From: an uncultured Candidatus Saccharibacteria bacterium
Lineage (GTDB): Bacteria; Patescibacteriota; Minisyncoccia; Phycocordibacterales; CAIZLB01
Direction of reading: 5' to 3'
Length of the DNA: 64,000 nucleotides
NCBI GenBank assembly: GCA_964450605.1
Contig: CAYVEK010000001.1
Coordinates: forward strand, 143,933 to 207,932
Each line of letters starts with the position of its first letter. Position 1 is the first letter of the stretch. Position numbers and translations under genes: made by a program. This document shows, piece by piece, positions 1,680-50,689 of this stretch. The notes under the pieces are model-generated. The model saw only the letters and a program-made list of their open reading frames with translations. It searched no databases and was not told the DNA's origin.

Positions 1680-2087
1680 TTACAAAAAATCAGCAAAGAT
1701 AAAAGTGCTGATTTTTTGTTTTATGCTTAAAAACAGTTTTGCTTCTAAGTGATGTATTTTATTGATAAGTCTCCGGCTATCAAAATTTTTTATTTGTGAA
1801 ATATGAATTAAACAATCCTTATTTTTTATTTTTCCAATATAAAGTTTGTATTTATTTATATTTTCAACCTTAGAACTAAGAGGTACACATAAAAAAGAGT
1901 TTCTACCATATTTTTTAATTATAAGTACAGGCCTCTCAAAATTTTTACCTTTCCCATCTATTTCATATCCAATGTTAACACCCATGTGTACCCACCAAAT
2001 ATCCCCCTCATCAAAGTAGGGAATATGATCTAGTTTGTTGTTGACTGATTCTTTTACAGAATGCCACTCTTTAAAGTTTTTAAACAT
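1680..2087 (-). CDS. PemK/MazF-like endoribonuclease toxin-domain protein (orphan; no obvious antitoxin partner)
   Basis: Core resembles MazF/PemK: GDIWWV...G.E.DGKGKNFERPVLII...VPLSSK...ISQIKNFDSRRL. An 8-bp perfect inverted repeat gtgtagta-N5-tactacac abuts the start codon. Confidence 0.5.
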   Translation of the reverse strand: MFKNFKEWHSVKESVNNKLDHIPYFDEGDIWWVHMGVNIGYEIDGKGKNFERPVLIIKKYGRNSFLCVPLSSKVENINKYKLYIGKIKNKDCLIHISQIKNFDSRRLINKIHHLEAKLFLSIKQKISTFIFADFL

Positions 2088-2244: not shown

Positions 2245-2290
2245 GCTGTGACAGATTTCGGGTGTGGGATTCGAACCAACCAAACTCGCA
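2245..2290 (-). other. tRNA 3'-end-like fragment (T-arm GGTTCGAATCC plus acceptor 3' strand), no complete tRNA; possible att-site remnant
   Basis: The minus-strand reading ...ggttggttcgaatcccacacccgaaa... has a canonical T-loop TTCGAAT and flanking stem, but no matching 5' acceptor/D/anticodon arms. Confidence 0.4.
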
Positions 2291-2302
2291 ACTACCCACC
2301 AT

Positions 2303-3466
2303 ATGAAGGCAAAAGCCCTTCTCAATACCATTGTGGCGGCCATCCTGGCCGTCTTCGCCCTCTGCATCACCACCCCTGCTTCGGCTACGGAGCCGGTGAA
2401 CAAGTTCACCCTGACCCGGCCTGGTGCTGGCGTCAGTACAGACGTGTTTCTTAGCTTCCTTCCACGGGAAAACCCTTCGAACCCTGCTCTGCAGGGCGAG
2501 ACCTGGGTTACAGCTCGGGATGGCTGGGTCAACATCCTTCGGACCGGCGGTTCTTCCGTCGGTTCTGGGTACACCCTCGCAGCCAAGCGTTCATCACCAG
2601 ACTACAACTGGTTGATCACGTCAAGTTTCCCATCATGGGGCGGGGAACTGGACAGTACGACTCAGTTCGGAAACCGTCATCACTTCGGATTGCGTATTCA
2701 CGCGATTCGCCCCGGGGTGACATTCCGGATGCAGGACGTGACCACAGAGGTCCGGTCCTACATCTATGGTTCATCCGGTTGGGCCGCTGACGGAGTGGTG
2801 AATATCTCCACAAACCTGTCGGTCCTGAACGCTTTCAGGCTCCGGCTTGAAGCAGGGACGGATGGGGTCAATGGGACCAATGATGATCCGGTCGCGACGG
2901 TACAGAGCTCGTCACTCCCATCAACATCGTGCCTCTTCGGAGGTCTCGGTGTTGCCATGGGGGCCTACGGCTCCGGTGATAACTACCAGAAACTGCGCAA
3001 TGTATACAACTATTGCGCAGCAAATCATCTGGTGTTTAAAATTAATGTAAATATCCCGTACACCGAAAACGGCCAACCATTTACCTCGTCCGCATCAGCG
3101 GTCTTCGCTCCGGCGACACAGCAGTGGTCAGACCAGTTGCCGGAAGGTACTGTGATGCCACCACTCAGTCTCTCCATCTCCGAATCAGAACTTCTGTTCG
3201 GTGACAGTGAGAAGGGGCTGTTTCCGGCCACAAACAGTCTGTACGTCGTGGAGAAATCTACTGAACAGCGGTCGTGGACACCGGTCGTTCCAGCAAACTT
3301 CGGCACAGGCCTCCTGACCCCATTCGCTGTCGGGGATTATCTCGCCGGCGCTCCTCGGTATTTCTACAGGGTTCGCCAGCTGATCCCAGCCACCCAGCAA
3401 ACCCTCCGCGGACCGCGGAACAACGTCCCCACCGGACCGCCGATCGGCGACTCTGTGGCACCCTGA
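2303..3466 (+). CDS. Secreted hypothetical protein encoded in a ~58% GC island (likely horizontally acquired)
   Basis: Long ORF with N-terminal signal peptide MKAKALLNTIVAAILAVFALCITTPASA. GC content and codon usage (GC3-rich) differ sharply from flanking genes. No recognisable domain. Confidence 0.6.
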   Translation: MKAKALLNTIVAAILAVFALCITTPASATEPVNKFTLTRPGAGVSTDVFLSFLPRENPSNPALQGETWVTARDGWVNILRTGGSSVGSGYTLAAKRSSPDYNWLITSSFPSWGGELDSTTQFGNRHHFGLRIHAIRPGVTFRMQDVTTEVRSYIYGSSGWAADGVVNISTNLSVLNAFRLRLEAGTDGVNGTNDDPVATVQSSSLPSTSCLFGGLGVAMGAYGSGDNYQKLRNVYNYCAANHLVFKINVNIPYTENGQPFTSSASAVFAPATQQWSDQLPEGTVMPPLSLSISESELLFGDSEKGLFPATNSLYVVEKSTEQRSWTPVVPANFGTGLLTPFAVGDYLAGAPRYFYRVRQLIPATQQTLRGPRNNVPTGPPIGDSVAP

Positions 3467-4395: not shown

Positions 4396-4417
4396 TCTTT
4401 TCTTGATTTGGACAAAA

Positions 4418-4449
4418 AACCGCTTTATACAACATAAAGCGGTTTTTTT
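4418..4449 (+). terminator. Rho-independent terminator
   Basis: Hairpin ccgctttat-acaac-ataaagcgg followed by a T7 run. Confidence 0.7.
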
Positions 4450-4481: not shown

Positions 4482-6965
4482 ATGGCCAAAGCAAAACATC
4501 CAGAAAACAATGCCGGAGAAGGCGCACAAGAGCTTCCAGTACATCAGTCTGTCATCCCTAGAAATATTATCGAAGAGATGCAGGAGTCGTATATCGACTA
4601 TGCCATGTCTGTTATTACAGACCGTGCTCTTCCCGACGTTCGAGATGGTTTAAAACCTGTACAGCGACGTATTTTGTATTCTATGCAAAAACTTGGTCTT
4701 AATCCATCTGCTAAGTATCAGAAAAGTGCCAAAGTAACTGGAGATACTATGGGTAACTATCACCCACACGGTAACATGGCCATCTATGACACTATGGTAA
4801 ACATGGTGCAGGACTTTAACATGCGGTATCCGCTTGTATGGGGTCAAGGTAACTTCGGTAACATTGATGGGTATCCCGCTGCGGCTGAACGATATACTGA
4901 GGTGCGTATGCAAAAGATCACTCCATATATCCTTGCTGATCTTGAAAAGAATACAGTCGACATGCGACCAAACTATGATGGTACACGAAAAGAGCCAAGT
5001 GTGATGCCGACTATTATTCCAAACATGCTTTTGAATGGTACTTTAGGTATTGCGGTAGGTATGGCAACAAACATTCCTCCTCACAACTTGGGAGAGATTG
5101 TCGATGCTACAACTCATCTTATAGATAATCCAGAAGCATCAACTTCTGATCTACTGCAGTTTGTAAAAGGTCCTGATTTTCCAACAGGAGGTATTGTATT
5201 TAATGAAAAAGATATTGAGATCGCCGAGACTCACGGTAAAGGAGGTGTGGTTGTTCGAGGTGAAGCTGAGATTGTTGAAGAAAAAGCGGGACAATCAAAG
5301 ATTATTATCAGCTCTATACCATATCGAGTAAATAAAGCTTCTCTTATAGAGAGTATTGCTGATCTTGTTCGCGAGAAAAAAGTTGAAGGTATCAAAGATA
5401 TTCGTGATGAATCCACAAATGACATACGTGTTGTTATAGAGCTCAAGAACGGAGCATATCCTCAAAATATACTTAACTATTTGTATAAACATACACAGCT
5501 TGAGTCTAAATTCCACTACAACGTTGTTGCACTTGTTGATGGAGTACCACAGACACTTTCTTTGAAAGCTTCTCTTGATCACTTTATTGATCATAGAAAG
5601 ATTGTTATACGACGAAGAACTGAGTTTGATCTAGCAAAAGCAAAGGATCGAGAACATATCTTGCTCGGATTGAAAAAAGCTCTTGATCATATTGATGAGA
5701 TTATTGCCCTCATTAAAAAGAGTAAAGATACTCCAACTGCTCATGCAAACTTGATGAAGGAGTTTAAGTTTTCAGACAGACAGGCAACGGCTATCTTGGA
5801 AATGAAACTGCAGAAGCTTGCTGGTCTAGAGCGAAAGAAGATCGAAGATGAACTTAAAGCTGTACAAGCTTTGATCGAAGATCTTGAAGATATTCTTAAA
5901 AATGCAAAACGAGTTATAAAGATTATCAAAGAAGAGCTTTCTGCTGTTAAAGAAAAATTTGGAGATGCACGGCGTACTCGTGTTGTAAAACATGGTGTAC
6001 AGAACTTTTCACTTGAAGATATTATTCCAGATGAAGAAAGTGTTCTCGTACTTACTGCCGGAGGATATATCAAACGAACAAATCCAGATGAGTATCGAAA
6101 GCAAAAACGAGGTGGTGTAGGGGTTGTTGATGTTGATGTAAAAGAAGAAGACTTTATCACACATCTTGTGTCTGCTTCTATGCATAGTGATCTGCTGTTC
6201 TTTACTGATAAAGGAAAAGCGTATCAGATCAAGATGTATGATATTCCAGAAGGAAAGCGAGCTACACGCGGAAAATCTATCATGAACTTCTTGTCACTTT
6301 CTGAAGATGAGAAAGTAACTTCTATTCTTCCGATGCCAAAAGAAGTTAAGAGTTCAAATCTATCTCTGATGCTTATTACAAAGCTTGGAGTAGGAAAGAG
6401 AGTCGCGCTCGATAGTTTCAAAGATGTACGACGAAGCGGTATTATTGCCATCACACTTGATGCTGGAGATCAATTGATATCTGCCTCATTTGTAGAAGAA
6501 AAAGATTCTGTAATACTGGTTGCAAGTGATGCGCAGTCTATACGATTTGCTGTGGATGAGATACGAGAGATGGGGCGATCTGCCGGAGGTGTCCGAGCAA
6601 TGAAACTTGATAAAGGTGAGACTATAGTTGGAGCGATACCTGTGAAAGCGTCATCAAAAGATGCAGCTGAACTTCTTACTGTTTCTGCAAATGGATATGG
6701 AAAGAAAACTCCACTTGATGAGTATAAAGTACAAGGACGAGGTGGATCAGGTATTAAAACATTTAAAGTTACAGATAAGACAGGATCTTTGATGGCGGCA
6801 CAAGTTGTAACTGATGATATTGAAGAGATAGTGGCGATATCAAAGAAGAGTCAGGTTATTCGATGTGAACTTAAAGAGATACCAAGTCTTGGACGAGATA
6901 CACAAGGTGTACGCATTATGAAGCTTCGAGAAGGAGATTCTCTTGCATCAGTTATTGGAGTCTAG
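4482..6965 (+). CDS. gyrA: DNA gyrase subunit A (type IIA topoisomerase A subunit)
   Basis: QRRILYSM, YHPHGN...IYDTMV active-site region, GyrA-box-like QKRGGVG, C-terminal beta-pinwheel repeats; 827 aa. Confidence 0.85.
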   Translation: MAKAKHPENNAGEGAQELPVHQSVIPRNIIEEMQESYIDYAMSVITDRALPDVRDGLKPVQRRILYSMQKLGLNPSAKYQKSAKVTGDTMGNYHPHGNMAIYDTMVNMVQDFNMRYPLVWGQGNFGNIDGYPAAAERYTEVRMQKITPYILADLEKNTVDMRPNYDGTRKEPSVMPTIIPNMLLNGTLGIAVGMATNIPPHNLGEIVDATTHLIDNPEASTSDLLQFVKGPDFPTGGIVFNEKDIEIAETHGKGGVVVRGEAEIVEEKAGQSKIIISSIPYRVNKASLIESIADLVREKKVEGIKDIRDESTNDIRVVIELKNGAYPQNILNYLYKHTQLESKFHYNVVALVDGVPQTLSLKASLDHFIDHRKIVIRRRTEFDLAKAKDREHILLGLKKALDHIDEIIALIKKSKDTPTAHANLMKEFKFSDRQATAILEMKLQKLAGLERKKIEDELKAVQALIEDLEDILKNAKRVIKIIKEELSAVKEKFGDARRTRVVKHGVQNFSLEDIIPDEESVLVLTAGGYIKRTNPDEYRKQKRGGVGVVDVDVKEEDFITHLVSASMHSDLLFFTDKGKAYQIKMYDIPEGKRATRGKSIMNFLSLSEDEKVTSILPMPKEVKSSNLSLMLITKLGVGKRVALDSFKDVRRSGIIAITLDAGDQLISASFVEEKDSVILVASDAQSIRFAVDEIREMGRSAGGVRAMKLDKGETIVGAIPVKASSKDAAELLTVSANGYGKKTPLDEYKVQGRGGSGIKTFKVTDKTGSLMAAQVVTDDIEEIVAISKKSQVIRCELKEIPSLGRDTQGVRIMKLREGDSLASVIGV

Positions 6966-6998: not shown

Positions 6999-8315
6999 AT
7001 GAGTATTGTAAAAGAACTTCACCTATTTCAGATTATTACACTTGGTATATTTTTAGTTGTCGGACTTGCTGGTGTTGCCTTTTTTGCAACCAACAAATCT
7101 GCAGGAACTAAAACAGGATATGAGCCAGTTATATGGGGAACTATTCCAAAATCAGTCATCGATGAATCAATGACGTATTTTCGTGAACAGGGTACAAATC
7201 CTCGTTTCTCATATGTAGAGTATTCAGAAGAGGGTTTTGAACAAACACTTTTAGTGGCTATTGCAAACGGCACAGGTCCAGATGCAATTATATTTCCAAG
7301 TAATATGTTCTATACTCAAGCAAGTCGTCTAGCTACTATACCAAATGAGTCTGTGTCTGCTAAAAATTTTGCCGAAACATACATAGACGCAGGTCAGACA
7401 TTTGCAGTGCAGGGCGGTATAAAAGGTTTTCCTTTGGTTACTGATCCTATGGTTATGTATTGGAATCGAGACATATTTTCATCTGTTGGTTTACTAAACC
7501 CTCCTAAGACATGGGCAGAAGTTGGACAGATGACCTCAAAGATAGTTCGTAAAACAGATAACGGTGTTATCACTCGTGCATTTGTTGCACTTGGTGAATA
7601 TAATAACGTGGATTACGCGAAGCGTATATTATTTACTTTGATGTCACAGGTAGGTGTAAAGCTTACATATTATAGTCCACAATTTGGAGGATATACATCT
7701 GGGCTTATAAATAGTGCTGATGGTGGGGAAGAAAAATCTCGTTCTGTTCTTACGTATTACACTGAGTTTGCTAATCCAGTTAAAGCTTCTTACACTTGGA
7801 ATAGATCTCTTATAAATTCACGAGAAGCATTTCTATCAGGTGATTTGGCGGTATACTTTGGTCCTGGTAGTGAGCTCGAGTATATACGGAGTCGTAATCC
7901 AAATCTAAACTTTAGAGTTGCTCCTATGCCTCAAGAAAATCAAAGTGCAAAATCCGTACACGGTAAAACATATGCGGTTGGAGCGTTGGTGACATCAAAA
8001 GATGTAAACTCAACTATAACAGAGCTTGCAACTTTCTTTACTCCAACACAGACAATAACAGCACTTTCAACTGCTTTAGATATGGCTCCGGCTCGTAGAG
8101 ATGTACTTGCTACATCTAAAGAGGGTCAATCAGACATAAATGTTGGTGCTATTTATGAATCAGCCGTGTATGCCAAGGACTGGGTAGATCCAAATCCAAC
8201 TTCTACCTCAGCCATATTTAAAACAATGATAGAATCCGTTACCTCAGGGCAACAGACATTGTACGAATCATTACAAGACGCTTCAAACCGACTTTCTGCT
8301 TTATTTCAACAATAA
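6999..8315 (+). CDS. Membrane-anchored extracellular protein (N-terminal TM helix; function unknown, possibly solute-binding-like) preceding the pilin array
   Basis: N-terminal hydrophobic helix LFQIITLGIFLVVGLAGVAFF, then a large soluble domain; no confident motif. Confidence 0.3.
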   Translation: MSIVKELHLFQIITLGIFLVVGLAGVAFFATNKSAGTKTGYEPVIWGTIPKSVIDESMTYFREQGTNPRFSYVEYSEEGFEQTLLVAIANGTGPDAIIFPSNMFYTQASRLATIPNESVSAKNFAETYIDAGQTFAVQGGIKGFPLVTDPMVMYWNRDIFSSVGLLNPPKTWAEVGQMTSKIVRKTDNGVITRAFVALGEYNNVDYAKRILFTLMSQVGVKLTYYSPQFGGYTSGLINSADGGEEKSRSVLTYYTEFANPVKASYTWNRSLINSREAFLSGDLAVYFGPGSELEYIRSRNPNLNFRVAPMPQENQSAKSVHGKTYAVGALVTSKDVNSTITELATFFTPTQTITALSTALDMAPARRDVLATSKEGQSDINVGAIYESAVYAKDWVDPNPTSTSAIFKTMIESVTSGQQTLYESLQDASNRLSALFQQ

Positions 8316-8333
8316 TATTAAATAATCAAACAT

Positions 8334-8678
8334 ATGCAACAGCAATCATTTTTTAAAGGTTTACAATCTTGCTTTGGAGACGCTGATGGAGGGTGTGGGT
8401 GGCAAGAAATCTCTGCTTTAGTTGAAAACTTGTTACAAACACTGTTTATCATAGGTTTGTTTGCAGCGGGTTGTATGGTTGCATATGCTGGTTGGCTTTT
8501 GATTAGAAAAGGTAGTGACGCATCAGCACGAACTCGTGCACGAAAAATATTTCAAAATATTGTTTTAGGACTAATACTACTATTCTCAGCATACTACATC
8601 GTAGATCTTGTATTAACTAAAGTTGGTGTTACTGATGAGTTCCGACAGGGATTTATTGAACCAGGAAAAACAGAGTAA
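8334..8678 (+). CDS. TrbC/VirB2-like (T4SS-type) pilin paralog 1
   Basis: Small protein with a two-helix hydrophobic hairpin (LFIIGLFAAGCMVAYAGWLL ... IVLGLILLFSAYYIVDLVL) separated by a short basic loop, as in TrbC/VirB2 pilins. Confidence 0.55.
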   Translation: MQQQSFFKGLQSCFGDADGGCGWQEISALVENLLQTLFIIGLFAAGCMVAYAGWLLIRKGSDASARTRARKIFQNIVLGLILLFSAYYIVDLVLTKVGVTDEFRQGFIEPGKTE

Positions 8679-8716
8679 TCTGGTACAAAGTCATATAAAA
8701 GGGTATAATTTAAAAC

Positions 8717-9304
8717 ATGAAAAAATATATTTTTTATGTTTTAAGTTGTTTTGTACTACTCTTCGTATGTACAGTGCAAGTTCGCGCAGACTTTGATCTT
8801 TTTGATCAACCTCTTCCTAACGATACTACAGGAGGTCTTTTAGATGTTGATACTAGCTTGGGTAATACTTCTGCAAACACTAATACAAATACAGAAACTC
8901 CTGTACAAACTACCTCTGAGAATACTTCTGGCACTCCTGTACAAACTACCTCTGAGAATACTTCTGGAGACAAGCCTGTACAAGATACTTCAAAGAATAG
9001 TTTGAAAAAGAACCCTAAATACCTCATCACCAACCCTCTTGGAAAGACAACAAGTTTACAAGATGTGATTCTAAACGTTGTTAAAGTTGTTCAAATATTA
9101 CTCATGATGGCTGCTGTTGTGTACATCATATGGGCCGGTTTCTTATTTGTGACTGCAAAAGGTGACACTGCAAAAGTTGTAAAAGCTCGAAATTCGCTTC
9201 TGTGGGCAATGGTCGGAGTGGCTCTCGTACTTGGTGCTCAGGTGATAGTAACGACTATTAAAAACTCAGTTAACAGTGTTTTTTATGACACAACTAAAAA
9301 ATAA
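8717..9304 (+). CDS. TrbC/VirB2-like pilin paralog 2 with Thr/Ser-rich repeat N-terminal region
   Basis: Signal peptide; tandem TSENTSG(T/D)(K)PVQ(T/D)TS repeats; C-terminal hairpin VVQILLMMAAVVYIIWAGFLFV ... LLWAMVGVALVLGAQVIV. Confidence 0.55.
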   Translation: MKKYIFYVLSCFVLLFVCTVQVRADFDLFDQPLPNDTTGGLLDVDTSLGNTSANTNTNTETPVQTTSENTSGTPVQTTSENTSGDKPVQDTSKNSLKKNPKYLITNPLGKTTSLQDVILNVVKVVQILLMMAAVVYIIWAGFLFVTAKGDTAKVVKARNSLLWAMVGVALVLGAQVIVTTIKNSVNSVFYDTTKK

Positions 9305-9308
9305 TCGT

Positions 9309-9830
9309 ATGAAAAAATATATTTTACTTCTATCTATGTACCTTTCGTTGTCTGCTGTTTTTGTAGTATCTGCTGCAAATGTCTCTTTACCTAACATACC
9401 AGTAACACAAACGGATCAATTTGGTGATACAACAACTACAAATGCCGGAGGTATAATAAATACCTCTGCTGATAATGCTGTTTCAGGAACAAACATCCAA
9501 TACACTACACCAGGTGTACAATATCCAACTGTTAATACGCCTACAAACACCTCAAAATTATCAATAAGTGGTCTAGTGGCTTGGTTTGTTGAGCTTATAA
9601 ACTATATTATAAAGTTTATTTTAACACTGGCCCTCATTGCATTTTTGTGGGGAATATTCAGACTTGTGTTTGTGGATGCGACAAATGAAGCTGAAAGAGC
9701 TAAGGCTAAAAAATTCATTCTTTGGGGAATAGTTGCATTGTTTGTAATGACTTCTGTGTGGGGGCTGGTTAACGTGCTACACTCTTCAGTATTTGGCGGT
9801 AGTACCTTGATTATTCCACAATTAAAGTAG
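9309..9830 (+). CDS. TrbC/VirB2-like pilin paralog 3
   Basis: Signal peptide MKKYILLLSMYLSLSAVFVVSA; C-terminal FILTLALIAFLWGIFRLVF ... FILWGIVALFVMTSVWGLVNVL. Start chosen at the internal Met (9309) rather than the overlapping 9276. Confidence 0.55.
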   Translation: MKKYILLLSMYLSLSAVFVVSAANVSLPNIPVTQTDQFGDTTTTNAGGIINTSADNAVSGTNIQYTTPGVQYPTVNTPTNTSKLSISGLVAWFVELINYIIKFILTLALIAFLWGIFRLVFVDATNEAERAKAKKFILWGIVALFVMTSVWGLVNVLHSSVFGGSTLIIPQLK

Positions 9831-9888
9831 TATAATAAAGTTATAGGTTATATTAATAAATAATTTTTAAAAATTTCTTACATATTTT

Positions 9889-10290
9889 ATGAAATCTAAA
9901 TTTTCTATACTAGCAATCGCATTAACACCGTTTCTTGCAAATGCACAGCTAGGATCAGAGGGATTTGCCTCAACAGTAGATGGATTTTTGGCCTACTTAC
10001 TATATATTGCAGGTCGAGCTCTTCCTCTTCTTATTCTTGCCGCTCTACTATTCTTCTTGTGGGGAATATTTAAAATATTCTTTTGGGACAGAGGACACGA
10101 TGATCCTAAAAACAAAACTTTTATCCTTTGGGGAGTTGTTGCATTGTTCGTGATGGTATCTGTATGGGGACTTGTAAACGTTCTACGAGATACACTACGA
10201 CTTGATAACTCACGAGTTCCATCTGCTCCAGCTATTCCATTTCCGGCAGCGCCTGCCACAAACTCAGGTGGCTTAGCTCCAGCAAGATAA
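9889..10290 (+). CDS. TrbC/VirB2-like pilin paralog 4
   Basis: Signal peptide; LLILAALLFFLWGIFKIFF ... FILWGVVALFVMVSVWGLVNVL, near-identical C-terminal motif to paralog 3. Confidence 0.55.
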   Translation: MKSKFSILAIALTPFLANAQLGSEGFASTVDGFLAYLLYIAGRALPLLILAALLFFLWGIFKIFFWDRGHDDPKNKTFILWGVVALFVMVSVWGLVNVLRDTLRLDNSRVPSAPAIPFPAAPATNSGGLAPAR

Positions 10291-10303
10291 TACATTTTTA
10301 CGT

Positions 10304-10337
10304 AAAAAGCCTCGAGTGTACTCGAGGCTTTTTATTT
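10304..10337. terminator. Bidirectional rho-independent terminator
   Basis: Perfect hairpin agcctcgag-tgta-ctcgaggct, flanked by an A-run upstream and a T-run downstream. Confidence 0.75.
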
Positions 10338-10351
10338 TGTATACTTAATAC

Positions 10352-10648
10352 ATGCAAGAAGTATATAAACTTATCAGTAAGATAAATGAATACGTATTAA
10401 ATCCTATCATTCTTATCGTATTTGCCATCGCACTCCTTTTCTTTATGTTTGGAATTTTTGAATATTTATGGAAATCACACAAAGATCCGGCGGCTATACA
10501 GGCAGGGGCAAAGCATATAGGTTGGGGTATAGTCGGTATGCTTATTATGATATCTGTATTTGGAATTATACAGGTCATAATAAACACAATACCTGTGGAT
10601 TCAAATGCTAAAGATGCAGTAAAAAAGGTTATACCTATCAATAACTAA
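10352..10648 (+). CDS. TrbC/VirB2-like pilin paralog 5 (short form)
   Basis: 98 aa; two hydrophobic helices IILIVFAIALLFFMFGIF and IGWGIVGMLIMISVFGIIQVI separated by a charged loop. Confidence 0.5.
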   Translation: MQEVYKLISKINEYVLNPIILIVFAIALLFFMFGIFEYLWKSHKDPAAIQAGAKHIGWGIVGMLIMISVFGIIQVIINTIPVDSNAKDAVKKVIPINN

Positions 10649-10665: not shown

Positions 10666-10694
10666 CCCGCAGCGCGCATGTGACGCGCTGCGGG
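10666..10694 (-). terminator. GC-rich hairpin terminator for the minus-strand GC-island operon
   Basis: cccgcagcgcg-catgtga-cgcgctgcggg hairpin; on the minus strand it is followed by CTTTCTTTTT. Confidence 0.55.
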
Positions 10695-10702
10695 GTGGAC
10701 AG

Positions 10703-11302
10703 TTATCGGTTTGGTGTAAACCGGAAAATTGCCCGAATCTTTGAAGTAGGCTCAACGGGACGTAATCCTAGTTCGAGCGTTTCCCCAAAGATAGCTTTTT
10801 GAGTTTCTCGGGATATTTTGTCCCGATTGACCCCGTCAGGGCGGATCAGCCACGATCCGCCTTTGCTATCCCACAGTAGTTGCTTGTTCGAGCGCCCTGT
10901 GGGTGACGCGGAGTCTCTGACTGTGAGGAGGAGGATTGCTCCGTCTCCATATACAGTCAGACCCCATACTTTATCCCATGTCGAGGTTTTTGGAGCCCCG
11001 ACTGGGCTTGGTTTCCACAACTCCTCTCCAGAGGAGGTGGACTCTTTTTCTACCCAAGCAGGAACTGTATCCGACTTGGTCGTGGTGCCAGAGGCTGAAG
11101 GCTCTGGGCTTGTGGTCGTGATGGGGTCACGAGGGTTGGGCAGGGCGCCCGCTTCTCGCATACCCTCAGAAGTTTCTCGACGAATGTCTTCGCCGATAGC
11201 TCCTACAACCGTCTCCGCTGCTCCTGTGTAGGGATTGGCGGTTGGTGATGTCAATTTGGTTACTAGTATCACCACTACTAGTAAGCCTATGATGTACTTC
11301 AT
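10703..11302 (-). CDS. Secreted hypothetical protein in a GC-rich island
   Basis: Signal peptide MKYIIGLLVVVILVTKLTSP; Pro/Thr/Ser-rich, no known motif; ~57% GC versus the AT-rich surroundings; 4-bp overlap with the upstream gene (operon). Confidence 0.55.
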   Translation of the reverse strand: MKYIIGLLVVVILVTKLTSPTANPYTGAAETVVGAIGEDIRRETSEGMREAGALPNPRDPITTTSPEPSASGTTTKSDTVPAWVEKESTSSGEELWKPSPVGAPKTSTWDKVWGLTVYGDGAILLLTVRDSASPTGRSNKQLLWDSKGGSWLIRPDGVNRDKISRETQKAIFGETLELGLRPVEPTSKIRAIFRFTPNR

Positions 11303-12543
11303 ATTCTTGTCACAACGACTGGAGGATTGCCACCTCCGCGGTTGTTTCGTTTTTTGCTGTTTTTACCACTGCCACCACTTTGGCGGATATCCAACCCTTT
11401 AAGAGCCCCCTCCTCGACCTGTATAAATCTCAGAAGTTGTTCGTCGCTCATTGTTGGGAATATCCGTCTCGCCTCATCCATCTTCGGCCCCTTGTTGCGG
11501 ATGTTCAAGGTCTCCCTCTGATCATCCAGTGCCTGCTTCTTGAGGGCAAGCATAGCCTCTTCTATCGACGGCGGGTTTTCAACCTTCGTGATTGTGATCG
11601 ACGAAAGCTGATAGCCGCTATCTATGAATCGTTGCTGGATTGTTCCGGTATTCAAGGCCTGGTCTGAAACCCCTTTAAGATTGCCGCGTATTTGAGACAC
11701 GGTAGTCCAGAAGGCGTCGCTGAGGACGACTGTTAGTGCTCCAAGCGCATAGAGGCGCATTTGGTCTGTTGACAGCGGATTAGTTTTTGATTTTTTTGGA
11801 TCGAAACAAACCACCACAACGGTACCAGTTATATGCGCCGGGAACTCACTTCCGTTGGACCCGCACTGTACTACAGCATCAGTTTTGCCAGCCTCTCTTT
11901 CAAGGGGATAGGTTAACTTCTTGCCGTCGACATTTTCCCAGGACATGCCTAAGAAACTCGGAAGCAGTTGGTTTATAGAACCTCCAACTGCTTTATTCAG
12001 AATTGAAAGTCGGCGTCCCAAGAAGGAACCGACCCCGATCGTGTCGATAGGAACGATCTTTTTGTTGAGTATGCACTCCTTGAAGAAGGAGCGAAAAACC
12101 CAGAAAAAGATTATTCCTGCAGTCAGCATCACTGAGAAGAAATAGTACAGTCCTCCTGGAAGGAGAAACAGTACAATCTTCTTTGACAGCCATAAACTGC
12201 TGTTGATGAGTGCTATGTGAAGGCCGGCCGATGCGAGCAGACATCCAATGTTGCTGTGTTGCCCCTTCTTTCTCAGTATTCCGAAGCCTGCACCGATGAG
12301 AATGGTCGCTATAATCCAGGACCATCTCCACATTTCGTCTAGAGCAGCCTGTTCAGGCGATACTCTCGTGCCCAGGTTCTCCGACCTGGGGAATGCTTTT
12401 GAGCCAGAGCTCTGCTGTAATCCTGCAATGGCGTCTCCGAAGAACCACCATACACAGAATATAAGCAGAGCAATGCTCAAGAACCAAAAGACCAAGTTGC
12501 GGATTGCTTTTCCGCGACGACTGGTCGGTCTTAATATGCTCAT
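11299..12543 (-). CDS. Membrane protein with N-terminal TM helices and a C-terminal SPFH/band-7-like region, in a GC-rich island
   Basis: Multiple hydrophobic helices in the first ~160 aa; C-terminal segment resembling stomatin/prohibitin (...ITKVENPPSIEEAMLALKKQALDDQRE...); high GC. Confidence 0.5.
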   Translation of the reverse strand: MSILRPTSRRGKAIRNLVFWFLSIALLIFCVWWFFGDAIAGLQQSSGSKAFPRSENLGTRVSPEQAALDEMWRWSWIIATILIGAGFGILRKKGQHSNIGCLLASAGLHIALINSSLWLSKKIVLFLLPGGLYYFFSVMLTAGIIFFWVFRSFFKECILNKKIVPIDTIGVGSFLGRRLSILNKAVGGSINQLLPSFLGMSWENVDGKKLTYPLEREAGKTDAVVQCGSNGSEFPAHITGTVVVVCFDPKKSKTNPLSTDQMRLYALGALTVVLSDAFWTTVSQIRGNLKGVSDQALNTGTIQQRFIDSGYQLSSITITKVENPPSIEEAMLALKKQALDDQRETLNIRNKGPKMDEARRIFPTMSDEQLLRFIQVEEGALKGLDIRQSGGSGKNSKKRNNRGGGNPPVVVTRI

Positions 12544-12760: not shown

Positions 12761-12886
12761 TATGCTCCGCATATTCGAATACAAGGCAAAGCTTTTCTCG
12801 TCCCTCACGGACATGCAACTATGCATGTCCTCTTGCCCAAACGAAAACAAGCATCCTCGCTTTCGCTCGGACACTTGTTTTGTTTG

Positions 12887-12969
12887 TGGGCAAGGAGGGA
12901 CTCGAACCCTCAACCCTTGCGGGACTAGTTCCTAAGACTAGCGCGTATACCAATTCCGCCACTTGCCCA
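12887..12969 (-). tRNA. tRNA-Leu (anticodon UAG), type II with long variable arm
   Basis: Manual fold: acceptor GGGCAAG/CTTGCCC, anticodon stem ctagt/actag with loop cTTAGga, variable hairpin tcccgcaaggg, T-arm gagggTTCGAGTccctc. Confidence 0.85.
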
Positions 12970-12987
12970 TATTCTGCTATTGCAGGT

Positions 12988-13060
12988 CCGTCTAGTAGGA
13001 TTCGAACCTACGACCAATTGCTTAAGAGGCAACTGCTCTACCAACTGAGCTATAGACGGG
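12988..13060 (-). tRNA. tRNA-Lys (anticodon CUU)
   Basis: Manual fold: acceptor ccgtcta/tagacgg, D-arm gctcagttggtagagc, anticodon loop ctCTTaa, T-arm gtaggTTCGAATcctac. Confidence 0.85.
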
Positions 13061-13080
13061 AAATGTTTGTTTTACTCTGT

Positions 13081-13153
13081 GTGGACCCGAGGGGATTCGA
13101 ACTCCTGACCTCCTCAGTGCAAATGAGGCGCTCTACCAACTAAGCTACGGGCC
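13081..13153 (-). tRNA. tRNA-Ala (anticodon UGC)
   Basis: Manual fold: acceptor gggcccg/cgggtcc with the G3:U70 Ala identity pair, anticodon loop ttTGCac, T-arm aggagTTCGAATcccct. Confidence 0.85.
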
Positions 13154-13260
13154 CTTCGTCTTCAATACTACTATATTATTTTTAAAAATACAATACTATA
13201 TGTATCTTTATCTTTTCTTCGGTAAAACTTTATCATAGTGCTGATAGACTTTATTCAACT

Positions 13261-13661: not shown

Positions 13662-14156
13662 TTGTATTATCAGTTTAAATACATCAATAATATGCGACAA
13701 AAAATAAATACAAAAAAAGGTTTTACATTAATAGAGATACTGGTTGTGATAGGTATTATAGGAATACTGGCAACAGTTGTTTTGGTTGCTGTGAATCCTG
13801 CCAGACAGTTTAAACAAGCTCGAGACTCTCAACGTCTGGCAAATGTAAACACTATCCTAAATGCACTCGGACAAAACATATCCGATCATCAAGGTGTTAT
13901 TCATTGTGGTAGTGGTGACCCCGGCATATCAAATACTCCTCTGCTTATGACAACTGGTAGTGATGGGGTAGACATAGCAGATTGCTTGGTTCCAGAATAT
14001 CTTCCAAAGCTACCGTATGATCCATACCCAGAAAGAGGTCATTATGTGTCTGAAGATGATTACAATACTGGTTACAGCATAAGCACAGATCCACTAGGAA
14101 GACTCACTGTTTCCGCTACAGGTGAAATACAGCCAAATATTGCCGTATCAAGATAG
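13662..14156 (+). CDS. Type IV pilin / pseudopilin-like protein with prepilin-type N-terminal signal
   Basis: KKGFTLIEILVVIGIIGILA: class III (prepilin peptidase) signal with G-F-T-L-I-E. Confidence 0.75.
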   Translation: MYYQFKYINNMRQKINTKKGFTLIEILVVIGIIGILATVVLVAVNPARQFKQARDSQRLANVNTILNALGQNISDHQGVIHCGSGDPGISNTPLLMTTGSDGVDIADCLVPEYLPKLPYDPYPERGHYVSEDDYNTGYSISTDPLGRLTVSATGEIQPNIAVSR

Positions 14157-27279: not shown

Positions 27280-28020
27280 TTAGTTTTTGTCTATATATTG
27301 TGTGAAGGCATCCACCGGCAAACCTCCTGTTATACGAGTGTGTCCACCTATCATAAATGAAGGGGTTGCTCGTATTCCAAGCTCTACAGCAGCTGCTTTA
27401 TCGGCATCTATCTGTCCTGCATACTGTGGTTTCTTTCCCTCAGCCACAAGCATGTCATAGTTTAGACCTAGATCAGCTGTTAGTTTTTTAAAGAAACCAA
27501 CTCGCTCTGTTTTTCCAAGTGCTGACCATGTTGGCTGTGTTGCAAATACTTGAGTGTGAAGTTTTTCATATGCTTCTTTTGATACACTTTGTGCAGCAAG
27601 AACCATGCGCCCAACTTCTATAGATCCTTCTCCGTGAACAGGGTATATACGTCGTGTGATAGTCAAACGATCTCCATAGGTGGCTAGAAGTTGCTGAGTG
27701 ATCACTTCGCCGTTTGTAGCACATGCTGGACACTCATAATCCATAAACTCAGTTATCTCTATAGGTGTTGAAGAAGCGGTTCGAGGAGCTGTTCCTTTTC
27801 CTGTTCCAACTATTTTTGGATTACCTGCTGGTGCAACTTTATCTTTTGTAAAAGTCAGTCCGCTTTGAATGTATTTTGCATACTGTCCTTCGCCGCCATT
27901 TGAAGCGACATTTGATTTGAAGGCCATAAGTCCTCCAACTATAATAAGCGCTGTAACAGCAAGTATACCAAGTGTTACTTTTGTTTCTGTGCTTACCGCA
28001 CTGCTATTTGTATATGTCAT
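27280..28020 (-). CDS. DsbA-like thiol:disulfide oxidoreductase (membrane-anchored thioredoxin fold)
   Basis: N-terminal TM; CPAC active site in EFMDYECPACA. Confidence 0.75.
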   Translation of the reverse strand: MTYTNSSAVSTETKVTLGILAVTALIIVGGLMAFKSNVASNGGEGQYAKYIQSGLTFTKDKVAPAGNPKIVGTGKGTAPRTASSTPIEITEFMDYECPACATNGEVITQQLLATYGDRLTITRRIYPVHGEGSIEVGRMVLAAQSVSKEAYEKLHTQVFATQPTWSALGKTERVGFFKKLTADLGLNYDMLVAEGKKPQYAGQIDADKAAAVELGIRATPSFMIGGHTRITGGLPVDAFTQYIDKN

Positions 28021-28027
28021 ATGGGTA

Positions 28028-28501
28028 CTATTGTACCATTTTTACAGGAAGAGAAACCTTGCGTAACCACCGACGATATATGATACTGAGGACGATTATT
28101 ACACTAAAAGCTATAAATGACATCATAGGTATGGTTAGAAAACCGAAGTATTCAACATATTTTGATGTACAAGATACTCCATAACTGCATGATTCTGGAT
28201 TTTTAATAAAACCTATATATAGAAGGTTGTGATAGAGAGCTATGAGCCAGCCAAGAAAAGCTAGAGGTGTTACAAAGTGATAGACTTTCTGATCTCCTCT
28301 GAAGAATCCAATAAGTAATATCGGAACAAGAGAATACATACAGATACGTTGATACCAGCATAGTACGCATGGTGTATATCCTTTAACATCACTAAAATAT
28401 AAACTTCCAACAGTTGCTACGACTGCTTGTATAAGTGCTAGGTGTAGCGCATTTTTCTGAATCCAATTCCATGTAGTTTTCATATTTTTATAGTAACACA
28501 T
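28028..28501 (-). CDS. Disulfide bond formation protein B (DsbB/BdbC family)
   Basis: Four TM helices; CVLCWYQRICMY matches the BdbC-type LCxLCWYQR motif; second Cys pair CSYGVSC. Confidence 0.75.
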   Translation of the reverse strand: MCYYKNMKTTWNWIQKNALHLALIQAVVATVGSLYFSDVKGYTPCVLCWYQRICMYSLVPILLIGFFRGDQKVYHFVTPLAFLGWLIALYHNLLYIGFIKNPESCSYGVSCTSKYVEYFGFLTIPMMSFIAFSVIIVLSIIYRRWLRKVSLPVKMVQ

Positions 28502-38036: not shown

Positions 38037-38108
38037 GGCCCTATCGTCTAACGGTTAGGACATCGGCTTCTCAAGCCGGTAATCGGGGTTCGATTCCCCG
38101 TAGGGTCA
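38037..38108 (+). tRNA. tRNA-Glu (anticodon CUC)
   Basis: Manual fold: acceptor ggcccta/tagggtc, anticodon stem tcggc/gccgg with loop ttCTCaa, T-arm cggggTTCGATTccccg. Confidence 0.8.
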
Positions 38109-38136
38109 CCTTCAACAGCTAGCACGAGTAGCATAC

Positions 38137-38172: not shown

Positions 38173-39708
38173 GTGCAAATTAGTCACAATAAGGTATCCT
38201 TATACCATATGTCTATAACCAAGACCGATTTTCTTACATGCTTAGATTGTCCCCAAAATGCATGGTTAAAAATACACCGACCAGATGTGTACAAGAAATA
38301 TCCACTCTCTTCTTTTGAATTAAATATAATAGATACGGGTAATTTGATCGATACTCTGGCTCGAGACTTGTTTCCTGGTGGTATAACAATCCAATCTCGT
38401 GACGACTTCGAACTCACAAAGAAATTAATAGCGGAGAGAACACCTGTGATTTATCAGCCTGTCTTTATTACAAATAAATTTACAGCTGTCTCAGATATTC
38501 TAGTGTGGAATTCTAAAACCAATCTGTATGATCTGTACGAGGTAAAGTCTTCTACTACTTCTGAAGAGAACGGAGGGCGGAAAACAGATGAATACATTGT
38601 GGATATGGCATTTCAAAAAAATGTATTAGATGAGCTTGGTATAAAAATTGGAACATTTAATCTTATTCGAATTAATAAAGAATATGTAAGATTTGGCAAT
38701 ATAGATGTAAGCAGACTTTTCTTAACTGAAAATTTAACAGATCAAGTTGAACAAGCATTGGAGGATGTTAAATTAAAGATGGAGGGTGCTTATGAATTTC
38801 TATCTAAAGAGGTTGAGCCAAAGGGACACTGTGAATGTATTTTTAAGAGTAAAAATTCTCATTGTACTACCTCTAAATACTCAAATCATGATATGCCCGA
38901 ATACTCGGTTCATTCAATATCTCGTATACACAAGAAAAAGCTAATTGATTTAGTTGAACAAGGTATCTTGAACATACATGATGTACCTAAAGATTTTGAG
39001 TTGTCAGAAAATCAAAGACGCCAAGTAGACACTGCTCAATCGGGTAAGGAATTTATTGATCAAAACGGAATATCACAATTTCTTCAAACAATGGAATATC
39101 CGCTAGCTTTTCTTGATTATGAGACTTATCCTTCAGCTATACCGAAATTTGACGGGTATAGTCCATATCAGCAAATTCCATTTCAGTTTTCACTTCATGT
39201 AATTGAATCTATTGGTGGAGATGTTATTCATCATGAATTTTTACACTTAAATGATAAGTGTCCAGATGAATATTTTGCTGATGCACTTGAGAAGTATTTA
39301 CCAAAAAATGGAAGCGTTGTTGTTTGGAATCAGAAATTTGAGAAAGGTATCAATGAACAGATTGGTAAGCATCTGCCAAATCGCGTGGATTTTATGGATT
39401 CAATAAATAGCAGAGTTGTCGACTTAATGATTCCTTTTTTTGGAAAAACAACAATGTACGATCACCCTCAATTTAAAGGTAGTGCCTCAATCAAGTACGT
39501 ATTACCTGCGTTAGTTCCCGAATTATCATATAATGATATGCATATTCAAGAAGGAGGTACAGCGTCAGATACATGGAACAAAATAGTCTCAAGTGAGTAT
39601 TCTGAAAGTGAAAAATTGATTAAAGAACAAGCTCTAAGAGATTACTGCAGACTTGATACTTTGGCGATGGTTGAGATTTGGAAGGTATTAACTAAATCTA
39701 TCCAGTAA
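38173..39708 (+). CDS. Cas4/RecB-like PD-(D/E)XK nuclease (4-Cys cluster) fused to a C-terminal DnaQ-like DEDD 3'-5' exonuclease domain (DUF2779-like architecture)
   Basis: N-terminal CLDC ... D-x-YEVK (PD-D/ExK) ... CECIFKSKNSHC Cys cluster; C-terminal FLDYETY (Exo I), VVWNQKFE (Exo II), YCRLDTLAM (Exo III-like). Confidence 0.5.
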   Translation: MQISHNKVSLYHMSITKTDFLTCLDCPQNAWLKIHRPDVYKKYPLSSFELNIIDTGNLIDTLARDLFPGGITIQSRDDFELTKKLIAERTPVIYQPVFITNKFTAVSDILVWNSKTNLYDLYEVKSSTTSEENGGRKTDEYIVDMAFQKNVLDELGIKIGTFNLIRINKEYVRFGNIDVSRLFLTENLTDQVEQALEDVKLKMEGAYEFLSKEVEPKGHCECIFKSKNSHCTTSKYSNHDMPEYSVHSISRIHKKKLIDLVEQGILNIHDVPKDFELSENQRRQVDTAQSGKEFIDQNGISQFLQTMEYPLAFLDYETYPSAIPKFDGYSPYQQIPFQFSLHVIESIGGDVIHHEFLHLNDKCPDEYFADALEKYLPKNGSVVVWNQKFEKGINEQIGKHLPNRVDFMDSINSRVVDLMIPFFGKTTMYDHPQFKGSASIKYVLPALVPELSYNDMHIQEGGTASDTWNKIVSSEYSESEKLIKEQALRDYCRLDTLAMVEIWKVLTKSIQ

Positions 39709-44730: not shown

Positions 44731-46047
44731 TTAGATATAGATCTTCTTGTTTTTCAATCGTATGTTTGTATTCAAGCACCTCATAAATTCTCGCTTCTCA
44801 TCCATTGTCCCTTCGATTAGGATGAACTTGGCATAGTTCCGAATATCAATATCTTTCACCACCACAGTTGTCTTGGCACCAAGTAACATCTGCTCAAACT
44901 TCTTGAATCTTTGCACTTCAGCCGTGATCTTTTCTCTCATAGGCACTGTCTGTATCTCTAAATCGTCCATGAGGTCTTGTAGTTGGACAACAAGGTCTTC
45001 TTCATTGATGAATCCACATGGACAGTCTTGATCTCTCGTTCTTGTACATTTGTAGTATACATATCGGTTCATGTTACCGTTCTTCTGGTGCTTGAACTTT
45101 TCATCTGCCGTAATACCTGATCCACATAGTCCGCAAGTCATAATCTTGGTGAAGGCAAACTCCTTTTGTTGTGATCTTGGCTCGAGTATCTGACTTTTAA
45201 TCTTCTCCTGAACAAGATCAAACAATTCTTTCGTAATTATTGCTTTATGTGATCCGTTATACCAATTACCTGATTCTTTTGGAAACTCAAACCTGCCGTA
45301 GTAAAAGTGATTTTGGAATATTCTATAGAGATTTCCTAGACTTAGGTGGATATTATTCTCAGTCTTAAAGTTTATATCGTGCTTGAGCCATTGATATACC
45401 TTTCGTCCACTCCAACCATCGTAACCAATTTTCTCGAACATCTGCTTGATAATCGGTGCTCGTTCAGGATCTATGATGGATTCGCATTTTTGATCTATTC
45501 TTTTGTACTTTGTGTATCCAGTTGGTGGTTTACATGGCCACAAACCCATTTCAACTCTTGCCCGTAACCCTCGCTTCACGTTAATACTCTTATTGTCGTT
45601 CTCAAGTTTTGCTTGAGAACACAAGATCATCAGTAAGAATTTCTCATTAGGCGAATTAGAAAAAGTTTGTCCGTAGGTTTGTATATGAATTAACTTTCTT
45701 TGATCCATAAGATCAACAACGGCTCCGAGGTCTCCAGCGTTTCTTGAAAGTCTATCGGGTGCCCATGTGAGTATTCCGTTATATACACCTTTCGAAACCT
45801 CATTAAGTAGTTCTTTGAACACTGGTCGTTGTCCAGATTCTTTTGCAGAGTGAGATTCTCGTTTTATATCCACCACATTCAGTTTCAACCTTTCCGCAAT
45901 CGCTGTCATTTCTTTGATCTGAGAATCGATGGACAGGGCTTGCTGTTCATCTGATTCGGTTGATTTTCGGGCATATAGGCAATACTTAATCCTAGTTTCT
46001 GTTATTGATATATTGCTATGAATTTTGCCGATTACATTCGATTCCAT
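44731..46047 (-). CDS. Large serine recombinase (integrase)
   Basis: Catalytic YARKSTESDEQ...SIDSQ and DRLSRN motifs; recombinase domain; Zn-ribbon CGLCGS...C; 438 aa. Confidence 0.8.
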   Translation of the reverse strand: MESNVIGKIHSNISITETRIKYCLYARKSTESDEQQALSIDSQIKEMTAIAERLKLNVVDIKRESHSAKESGQRPVFKELLNEVSKGVYNGILTWAPDRLSRNAGDLGAVVDLMDQRKLIHIQTYGQTFSNSPNEKFLLMILCSQAKLENDNKSINVKRGLRARVEMGLWPCKPPTGYTKYKRIDQKCESIIDPERAPIIKQMFEKIGYDGWSGRKVYQWLKHDINFKTENNIHLSLGNLYRIFQNHFYYGRFEFPKESGNWYNGSHKAIITKELFDLVQEKIKSQILEPRSQQKEFAFTKIMTCGLCGSGITADEKFKHQKNGNMNRYVYYKCTRTRDQDCPCGFINEEDLVVQLQDLMDDLEIQTVPMREKITAEVQRFKKFEQMLLGAKTTVVVKDIDIRNYAKFILIEGTMDEKREFMRCLNTNIRLKNKKIYI

Positions 46048-46405
46048 ATATTAATTAATGACAGACCAGTCAGGGGTGCATAGCTATGCAAAATAGCCGA
46101 AACGTAGCATGGTCGTTTTGGCTATTAGCAAGGCTATATTTTGGCGTTATTATTAATCTAGAATAATAGATATGAAAATGCTATTATTCATTTACAACTA
46201 AATAAGGCGACCTAACCCTATGGAATAAACCCTATAGGTATGGTCATAAAGTCGATCAAGTGTAAAGAACCCGTCATGGGGTTTTGCTTGATCGCCGTAC
46301 TGGGAAACTGGTACGAAGGACTTCGGTCCTTACCCGTGGCGGGCTTTTTGTATACAACAAAATTCTCGCTAGGTTACAAATAATTTAAGCCGATCAAGCA
46401 AAATT

Positions 46406-47194: not shown

Positions 47195-47196
47195 CT

Positions 47197-50342: not shown

Positions 50343-50689
50343 ATATTTTTTATGATTATTGTTTATATATAGAGAACACAAAACACCATACGAGATGTAT
50401 GGTGTTTGCTTGTACACGCAATACATCGAGATGATAAATAACCAGTCTTGTTTTATGAGACTAGTAACTTATGACCTAGATTTATTGCAGGTTGTGTTTA
50501 TAAATCAATCTTCACTTTCATTGGATGTTGTCCTTATGAATGTGAAGACATTGATCGAAAATCTGTTCTTTTTGTTTCGGATATTGTCCATTCGACAAAA
50601 AGGGTGGCAAAGATTGATCTGAGGAATTGTGTAGTTGTAGAGTTCTCCTGTTGGTATTGTAGGTTGCCAGCATATTTAAAGTCAAGCAC

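Follow-up and report, generated by a model that had tools for sequence, protein, structure and literature searches.

A tandem array of VirB2-like putative pilin genes behind a solute-binding protein gene in a Patescibacterium, and its conserved order in Paceibacteria

The 64,000-nucleotide stretch of contig CAYVEK010000001.1 analysed here, referred to below as the window (positions 143,933 to 207,932 of the forward strand; assembly GCA_964450605.1, an uncultured Candidatus Saccharibacteria bacterium), carries five adjacent open reading frames (ORFs) on the plus strand at positions 8334-10648, exactly where an earlier note on this DNA had placed an array of pilin-like paralogues. We refer to these ORFs as P1 to P5. 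The gene immediately upstream encodes a solute-binding protein (SBP). The features of the SBP gene and the array are the following, with profile scores given for the Pfam families PF18895 (T4SS_pilin) and PF04956 (TrbC/VirB2) and for the NCBIfam family NF045849.

6999-8315, plus strand: SBP gene; 438 amino acids (aa), no cysteine; family 1, MalE-like, carbohydrate type; a membrane-anchored orphan.
8334-8678, plus strand: P1; 114 aa, class 1; acidic N-terminal tail, cysteine pair (C13, C21) directly before helix 1, then the hairpin; PF18895 25.3 bits, PF04956 18.8 bits, NF045849 18.8 bits.
8717-9304, plus strand: P2; 195 aa, class 2; signal peptide, linker of ~80 aa rich in Ser, Thr and Asn with a tandem repeat, YLITNPLGKTTSL motif, hairpin; PF18895 40.0 bits, PF04956 19.9 bits, NF045849 23.4 bits.
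8897-8967, plus strand: tandem repeat in the P2 linker; 36-bp unit x 2.0 with 100% matches, Tandem Repeats Finder score 142; 12-aa unit TPVQTTSENTSG.
9309-9830, plus strand: P3; 173 aa, class 3/4; signal peptide, linker of ~60 aa rich in Thr and Asn, hairpin; PF18895 30.2 bits.
9889-10290, plus strand: P4; 133 aa, class 3/4; signal peptide, short N-terminal region, hairpin, Pro-rich C-terminal tail; PF18895 23.5 bits.
10352-10648, plus strand: P5; 98 aa, class 5, last in the array; short amphipathic N-terminal tail without a signal peptide, hairpin; PF18895 21.8 bits, NF045849 27.7 bits.

Alignment and hydropathy analyses indicated that each of the five proteins ends in ~70 residues comprising two hydrophobic helices joined by a short loop rich in Lys and Arg. 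The AlphaFold2 model of P3, built from 47 sequences, has a signal-peptide helix (residues 2-20), a disordered region (21-85) and a hairpin of two helices (86-122 and 127-162; pLDDT ~87-90), and together these analyses bore out the description of five consecutive small genes with a common C-terminal hydrophobic hairpin. An alternative ATG for P3 at 9285 would give a protein of 181 aa, which is the product called by NCBI. Within the hairpin the paralogues are 18-29% identical to one another, the exception being P3 and P4 at 41%. The latter two had been described as almost identical over this region; this is true of helix 2 alone, in which 20 of 22 residues are equal and the DNA is 78% identical over 73 nt with no long identical tract. 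P3, P4 and P5 have a W-G motif, of which P1 and P2 show no more than a loose version. Signal peptides were identified in P2, P3 and P4, not in P1 and P5, and long N-terminal parts of the kind the earlier note had assigned to all five proteins as extracellular regions are confined to the linkers of P2 and P3, that of P4 being ~8 aa long. The tandem repeat in the P2 linker was confirmed, and its two perfect copies are flanked by two degenerate ones (repeat family D1). The YLITNPLGKTTSL motif of P2, between the linker and the hairpin, is a conserved one. Assembly of short reads broke off within the P2 repeat in three independent contigs, derived from two sequencing runs (the 3' ends of related loci L177 and L178 and the 5' end of L003). 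Such breaks are expected because the repeat exceeds the assembler k-mer, and they are therefore no proof of copy-number variation.

The earlier note had taken these proteins for TrbC/VirB2-like pilins of a type IV secretion system (T4SS), and searches with profile hidden Markov models were in agreement. PF18895 was the best Pfam match for all five proteins, and P2 and P3 exceeded its gathering score (26.6 bits). PF04956, whose gathering score is 27.9 bits, was a weak second match for P1 and P2 and did not match P3-P5. All five also matched NF045849 (Mbov_0395 family pilin-like conjugal transfer protein) at 18.8-27.7 bits (E 1e-3 to 1.6e-6), below its curated cut-off of 40 bits. In relatives, the orthologues at the P1, P4 and P5 positions have a "weak" precomputed PF18895 match or none. 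A family profile that we built from homologues detected exactly P1-P5 among the ORFs of the window, and in 1.84 billion proteins it matched 42,597 cluster representatives at E<=1e-3 and 8,800 at E<=1e-10. The homologues are nearly all PF18895 proteins of Parcubacteria and Taylorbacteria, and homologues and syntenic loci together came from Parcubacteria, Taylorbacteria, Kaiserbacteria and Nomurabacteria assemblies. We place the organism itself in the class Paceibacteria of the Patescibacteria. The sole homologue of P2 in a plasmid database is an NF045849-type protein of a Pontibacillus megaplasmid (47 bits against the class-2 profile), and 4 kb downstream of its gene are those for a "VirB4-like conjugal transfer ATPase, CD1110 family" and for a large peptidoglycan endopeptidase. 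A comparison of the sequence profile with PDB chains did not match VirB2, TraA or TrbC, and a fold comparison of the hairpin returned nothing specific; a helical hairpin is too generic a shape for either comparison to be informative. Based on the Pfam, NCBIfam, Pontibacillus and family-profile matches, we consider membership of P1-P5 in the VirB2/TrbC-like T4SS_pilin family to be well supported by sequence. Equivalence to the canonical VirB2 of diderm bacteria is not demonstrated by these matches.

The 438-aa protein ahead of the array had been noted as membrane-anchored, and its AlphaFold2 model (pLDDT 91.6) agrees, having a transmembrane (TM) helix at residues 3-31 followed by a two-lobe MalE-like fold. 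Its Pfam matches, SBP_bac_8 (PF13416, 77.7 bits) and SBP_bac_1 (PF01547, 48.4 bits), are above their gathering scores, and Foldseek aligned the model with maltose-binding protein and sugar SBPs (E ~1e-21, TM up to 0.69). We found no BPD_transp-type permease in the window, and no permease or ATPase of an ATP-binding cassette (ABC) transporter among the conserved neighbours in 80 species loci. These loci were the best 80 from a scan of the SBP alignment against one genome per species, which yielded at least 582 relatives, and species-locus counts below are drawn from them.

Linkage of the SBP to the array was assessed from both sides. From the SBP side, a pilin-like ORF on the same strand directly follows the SBP gene in 77/77 loci, these being the ones among the 80 with at least ~650 nt downstream of the SBP gene; its start lies -85 to +86 nt from the SBP stop, and a 4-nt ATGA overlap of the two genes is frequent. 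From the pilin side, a pilin motif was searched against metagenome contigs, and in all 32 loci with at least 1.5 kb upstream an SBP gene ends -7 to +47 nt before the first pilin gene. At locus L033 (9986-11668 of JBPOID010000005.1) the two are joined in a single ORF of 560 aa, comprising the SBP (2-427) and a class-1 hairpin with its cysteine pair (471-559) with no signal peptide between them. This fusion is the sole case among ~110 loci and could be an assembly error. A 646-aa ORF in L089 was considered as a second fusion and rejected as an alternative-frame artefact in a GC-rich genome. In the literature library that was searched, no published link between an SBP and pilin arrays was found.

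The individual array genes are not interchangeable. In the 62 species loci that extend 4 kb or more beyond the SBP gene, we sorted each pilin-like ORF by five class profiles. The arrays contain 4-8 genes, with five in 33/62 loci, and the order 1-2-(3/4)n-5 is kept in 44/62. Class 5 is last in 59 of the 62 loci and class 1 first in 49. The P3/P4 class, present in two (32 loci), three (23), four (6) or five (1) copies, is the sole class whose copy number varies between species. Each class also has features of its own. At least two cysteines were found in 105/111 class-1 members, and in the members that were inspected two form a pair just before helix 1; a signal peptide is usual in this class and has been lost in the lineage of the window. 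Of 132 class-5 members, 129 have no signal peptide. Motifs of the loop and the helices are conserved in over 100 species. Relatives with a GyrA 80-95% identical to that of the window have proteins of similar size at the same five positions (in aa):

Window: P1 114, P2 195, P3 173, P4 133, P5 98.
L001: P1 122, P2 195, P3 164, P4 134, P5 100.
L004: P1 117, P2 159, P3 161, P4 127, P5 97.
L006: P1 105, P2 133, P3 178, P4 128, P5 97.
L009: P1 119, P2 118, P3 178, P4 127, P5 98.

P1-P5 are thus four conserved classes (P1; P2; P3/P4; P5) in a fixed order and not a shuffling cassette. The window also encodes a DsbA-like thioredoxin and DsbB at 27280-28501 (minus strand), a disulfide-forming machinery in a Patescibacterium. 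Its presence is compatible with an extracytoplasmic disulfide in P1.

The gene upstream of the SBP gene is gyrA, as it is in 69/80 species loci, and it is probably the first gene of the transcription unit that includes the SBP and the array. The additional features of this unit are the following.

4414-4448: terminator-like hairpin preceding gyrA.
4482-6965, plus strand: gyrA, assigned by homology to loci whose products carry the Pfam domains DNA_topoisoIV and DNA_gyraseA_C.
10302-10335, plus strand: strong intrinsic-terminator-like hairpin after P4; 15 pairs, then a T run.
10666-10694: GC-rich hairpin of 12 pairs (ten G-C), located where P5 and the minus-strand ORF 10703-11302 converge; a terminator on the minus strand by its score.

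The intergenic gaps from gyrA through the SBP gene, P1 and P2 to P3 are 34, 18, 38 and ~4 nt, and the hairpin scan found no terminator between these genes. In a promoter scan, sites were no commoner than in shuffled sequence, and one 10/12 match lay before P4. Most relatives have an additional gene at this point: in 72/80 species loci a class I S-adenosylmethionine-dependent methyltransferase of ~175 aa lies between gyrA and the SBP gene (e.g., L082, 9423-10010), and its end overlaps the start of the SBP gene. The lineage of the window lacks this gene, and gyrA and the SBP gene are adjacent there. The remaining conserved neighbours, likewise of the housekeeping kind, encode an S1 protein, Pth, LepB, HisRS, IF-2 and RbfA. 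The window as a whole is chromosomal, as it carries gyrA, ribosomal protein genes, rpoA, dnaK, topA, serS, dprA and parB.

Comparisons between close relatives showed that variability is concentrated in two linkers. Between the window and L001, whose GyrA is 95% identical, the hairpins are 78-83% identical and the linkers of P2 and P3 are 33% and 25% identical. We also made comparisons with two near-identical strains (L094 and L095) from public read assemblies. The P3 hairpin had 0 nonsynonymous and 8-16 synonymous differences in the two strains, and the P2 hairpin had 2 nonsynonymous and 26 synonymous differences relative to L095. The ratio of nonsynonymous to synonymous differences per site (pN/pS) in the hairpins was 0.00-0.02, and the hairpins are under strong purifying selection between strains. 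The P3 linker differed by indels of 9 nt and 27 nt, the P2 linker of L095 is wholly different, unalignable and without the TSENTSG repeat, and linker pN/pS was 0.29-0.86. As these values are below 1, positive selection is not shown; relaxed constraint on a linker that is disordered and exposed would explain them just as well. Along the array, synonymous divergence (pS) is patchy (0.04-0.37), a pattern suggestive of mosaic recombination among strains. Within the array, no tracts of identity between paralogues long enough to suggest gene conversion were found. The hypervariable N-terminal regions of the earlier note are therefore real for the low-complexity linkers of P2 and P3, next to hairpins with 0-2 aa changes, and are limited to those two proteins. 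The comparison of copy number and repeat length among relatives that the same note had proposed gave variation in the P3/P4 class only (2-5 copies) and a P2 repeat missing from L095.

A further view of how the subunits might act came from multi-hairpin proteins. About 90 of the 150 best-scoring family representatives, in a ranking that favours multi-copy proteins, are single polypeptides with 2-8 consecutive hairpins (e.g., P0242, P0202, P0167, P0169 and P0179, handles of representatives and not array positions; one protein of 820 aa consists of a signal peptide and eight hairpins). Those inspected are continuous ORFs with linkers of ~30-40 aa, and one is a fusion of a P3/4-like and a P5-like hairpin. 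These fusions suggest that the members of an array work jointly, as parts of one assembly, and do not substitute for each other.

Based on these data, we lean towards a model in which the array encodes a heteromeric, VirB2-like surface filament or conduit of four subunit classes with fast-evolving exposed linkers, with a co-expressed orphan SBP of the carbohydrate type at the same structure and the T4SS encoded elsewhere in the genome. In this model, the array would be co-transcribed with the SBP gene and, in many relatives, translationally coupled to it. Each subunit would have two helices, with the basic loop between them in the cytoplasm and the N and C termini outside the cell, and would be inserted by Sec/YidC, with signal peptidase predicted to cleave P2-P4. 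The subunits may then co-assemble into one heteromeric pilin-like filament or envelope-spanning conduit, whose outer face would be decorated by the fast-evolving N-terminal linkers of P2 and P3, rich in Ser, Thr and Asn. Assembly would be driven by a VirB4-type T4SS at a distant locus, as encoded by most Paceibacteria, and at the filament or conduit the SBP could recognise carbohydrate, as a receptor or adhesin for material from the host.

Several observations count against this model. To our knowledge, such a filament has not been seen in any Paceibacterium. P1, P4 and P5 are under the PF18895 gathering score, and none of the five proteins reaches the cut-off of PF04956 or NF045849. Although pilin models do match the array, no T4SS components were found in the window, in which every ORF of at least 400 aa was scanned; all of these were assigned functions other than a T4SS except 2264-3466 and 11299-12543, which had no T4SS matches. 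Likewise, ~170 related loci (2.1 Mb) yielded no VirB4-like ATPase at a distance of 10 kb or less from the array. In these loci the only large ORFs with a Walker A motif beyond residue 200 were ABC proteins, ClpB and a helicase, and a Firmicute VirB4 query had no match in them at E<=10. Ten array-bearing relatives, all drafts of the class Paceibacteria, are included in Table S1 of Quinonero-Coronel et al. 2025 (PMC12102498); seven are VirB4-positive, which speaks for a T4SS encoded elsewhere, and the other three, which count against it, are VirB4-negative. Lastly, the role of the SBP at the pilin structure is one that we purely infer. A type IV (pseudo)pilin gene with a prepilin N-methylation motif (N_methyl, 31.9 bits) is present at 13662-14156 (plus strand) and is kept at the same position in relatives; it belongs to a pilus system distinct from the VirB2-like array.

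An alternative explanation is a membrane apparatus complete in itself, made up of the SBP and the pilin-like proteins and with no need of a T4SS, for instance an uptake channel or sensor fed by the SBP, with the hairpins as a membrane-embedded ring and no pilus. The coupling to the SBP is strict (77/77 and 32/32) and that to VirB4 zero in the ~170 loci, and three of the ten listed genomes are without VirB4. Proteins with up to eight fused hairpins, and hence 16 TM helices, resemble an integral membrane protein more than an extractable pilin. The single SBP-P1 fusion and the lack of an ABC permease or ATPase gene near the SBP, both in the window and among the conserved neighbours, would also fit such an apparatus. 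However, the family is homologous to pilin-like proteins inside T4SS clusters, in Pontibacillus and in Southlakia (PMC10633639), the three VirB4-negative genomes are drafts among seven positives, and the module itself encodes no energising component. The fused hairpins also need not point away from a pilus. VirB2-type pili have both termini on the outside, and fused hairpins are therefore compatible with a filament. On balance we regard this explanation as unlikely. Quite unlikely, in our judgement, is a related reading, in which the SBP and the ordered array are a distinct, self-contained surface apparatus across Paceibacteria, with the carbohydrate-binding protein physically coupled to a heteromeric VirB2-like filament or channel that recognises or imports host-derived material, independently of a VirB4 T4SS or only loosely associated with one. 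If true, such an apparatus could be the missing device for nutrient acquisition or host contact of these epibionts.

Another reading follows the model in the earlier note and takes the paralogues for interchangeable surface pilins or adhesins that diversify by recombination and changes in repeat number. Variation in antigens or host range would result, which is what has been proposed for the virB2 paralogues of Bartonella and Anaplasma, and the same idea was voiced in PMC12102498. It could account for the indels and unalignable P2 and P3 linkers in strains with identical hairpins, the patchy pS with its suggestion of mosaic recombination between strains, the two to five copies of the P3/P4 class in different species and the perfect tandem repeat in P2. 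It does not account for the arrangement of the array, since every position holds an orthologous class that has invariant features of its own and keeps its place in the order over large evolutionary distances. The same five positions are kept in relatives, the paralogues share no long identical DNA tracts, and the picture of a recombining set is not supported. In addition, the linker pN/pS values fit relaxed constraint as well as positive selection, and the fusion proteins imply joint and not alternate action. We consider this model distinctly doubtful.

That the proteins are unrelated small hydrophobic membrane proteins whose profile matches are compositional artefacts is highly improbable: three of the five Pfam scores are below threshold and the fold and PDB-sequence searches were unspecific, but three independent profile sets agree for all or several of the paralogues, the family profile has tens of thousands of matches, the loop and helix motifs are conserved in more than 100 species, and a homologue lies within a Firmicute T4SS cluster.

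The tandem pilin array itself is not new, because tandem VirB2-like arrays have been published for Patescibacteria (PMC10633639, PMC12102498). Quinonero-Coronel et al. described 441 arrays of 2-11 genes in 383 assemblies, with a mean identity within arrays of 25% and a maximum of 54%. The array described here resembles them in being a chromosomal series of PF18895/PF04956-type genes of low identity (18-41%) in a Patescibacterium, and its five adjacent genes fall within that survey's definition of an array (at least two pilin genes in tandem or one gene apart). The survey was centred on virB4 neighbourhoods, and its text makes no mention of an SBP or gyrA. In contrast, the present array is never near virB4, is always behind an SBP gene and has a fixed class order, and three of its members are weak Pfam matches (21.8-25.3 bits). 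In Southlakia epibionticum ML1, the T4SS locus includes a series of predicted pilin genes found to be essential by transposon sequencing (Wang et al. 2023, PMC10633639), six according to a review (PMC12857230). There, as here, several VirB2-like pilin genes divergent in sequence and similar in structure are present in a monoderm Patescibacterium, and a pilus on a Gram-positive-type T4SS has been proposed. Unlike that array, which is inside the T4SS cluster (SEML1_0006-0019), the one described here is apart from T4SS genes, lies behind an SBP gene and is known from sequence alone.

The ~80-residue two-helix hairpin is shared with the Mbov_0395/ICE_MMCAP2_0565 family (NF045849), whose members come from Mycoplasma integrative and conjugative elements and Firmicute T4SS clusters. 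Those are single genes in conjugation clusters, whereas here there are five genes in an array behind an SBP gene, with scores below 40 bits. Duplicated virB2 genes are also known in Bartonella and Anaplasma phagocytophilum (cited in PMC12102498), and tandem amplification and divergence of a T4SS major pilin gene is common to these and the present array. Their hosts are diderm pathogens of eukaryotic cells and the copies are thought to be alternatives for antigenic variation, in contrast to the ancient, ordered and non-redundant classes found here. For the SBP, two further proteins offer an analogy only. PrgZ of pCF10 binds pheromone, and ChvE of Agrobacterium senses sugar through VirA. Both have an SBP fold and are tied to a T4SS or conjugation and not to an adjacent ABC permease of their own, as the SBP of the array would be. 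They differ in belonging to other SBP families and in having a signalling role, and neither shares an operon with pilin genes.

An architecture of this kind across Paceibacteria, coupled to an SBP, unlinked to VirB4 and fixed in order, appears to be undescribed. A large part of bacterial diversity is patescibacterial. These bacteria live at the expense of host cells, and how they make contact with hosts and take up nutrients is largely unknown. A T4SS and its pilin arrays are essential in the one Patescibacteria species tested, and their function is open (PMC10633639, PMC12857230). To this our analyses add that in Paceibacteria, the largest class, the pilin genes are an ordered, conserved set that is invariably coupled to an SBP and never to a secretion ATPase. 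The surprise is a moderate one, as the array itself is an instance of a published phenomenon. The finding argues against reading such arrays simply as cassettes for antigenic variation, and it offers handles for experiment: a soluble SBP with a screenable ligand, and defined subunit classes for structure modelling and localisation.

Downstream of the array, the minus-strand ORFs 10703-11302 and 11299-12543 were considered as parts of the module and rejected, having 16-33% identity in close relatives and no family matches. The region of these two ORFs (10703-12543, minus strand) and that of ORF 2264-3466 (plus strand) are patches of higher GC content (0.465 and 0.49, compared to ~0.37 elsewhere); the ORFs encode proteins of 199 aa, 414 aa (with several TM helices) and 400 aa, respectively, and none has a family match. 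A cluster of tRNA genes (Leu, Lys and Ala; 12886-13154) adjoins ORFs 10703-12543. In 41 related loci, a minus-strand gene for a SPFH/Band_7 membrane protein of ~400 aa lies convergently just downstream of the array (e.g., L084, 15618-16829), and the 414-aa ORF of the window was not detected as a member of the same family.

Elsewhere in the window, a LOOT RNA (Rfam RF03000, 77 bits) was identified at 46209-46331 (plus strand) beside a serine recombinase gene at 44731-46047 (minus strand). Near it on the minus strand are genes for a large-terminase-like protein (47197-48705), a small-terminase/helix-turn-helix protein (48686-49084) and an N6/N4 DNA methylase (49071-50426). The region 44731-50426 looks like a prophage or the remnant of an integrated element downstream of a tRNA-Glu gene (38037-38110). 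At 39698-44662 (minus strand) is a gene for a protein of 1654 aa with DUF4011, AAA_11/AAA_12 helicase domains and a C-terminal MTES_1575 restriction-endonuclease-like domain, and at 52682-54610 a gene for an AAA_15/AAA_21 ATPase; both could be defence genes next to the mobile element. A MazF/PemK-type toxin gene (47 bits) was identified at 1680-2087 (minus strand) and is found in the same place in the relative L004.

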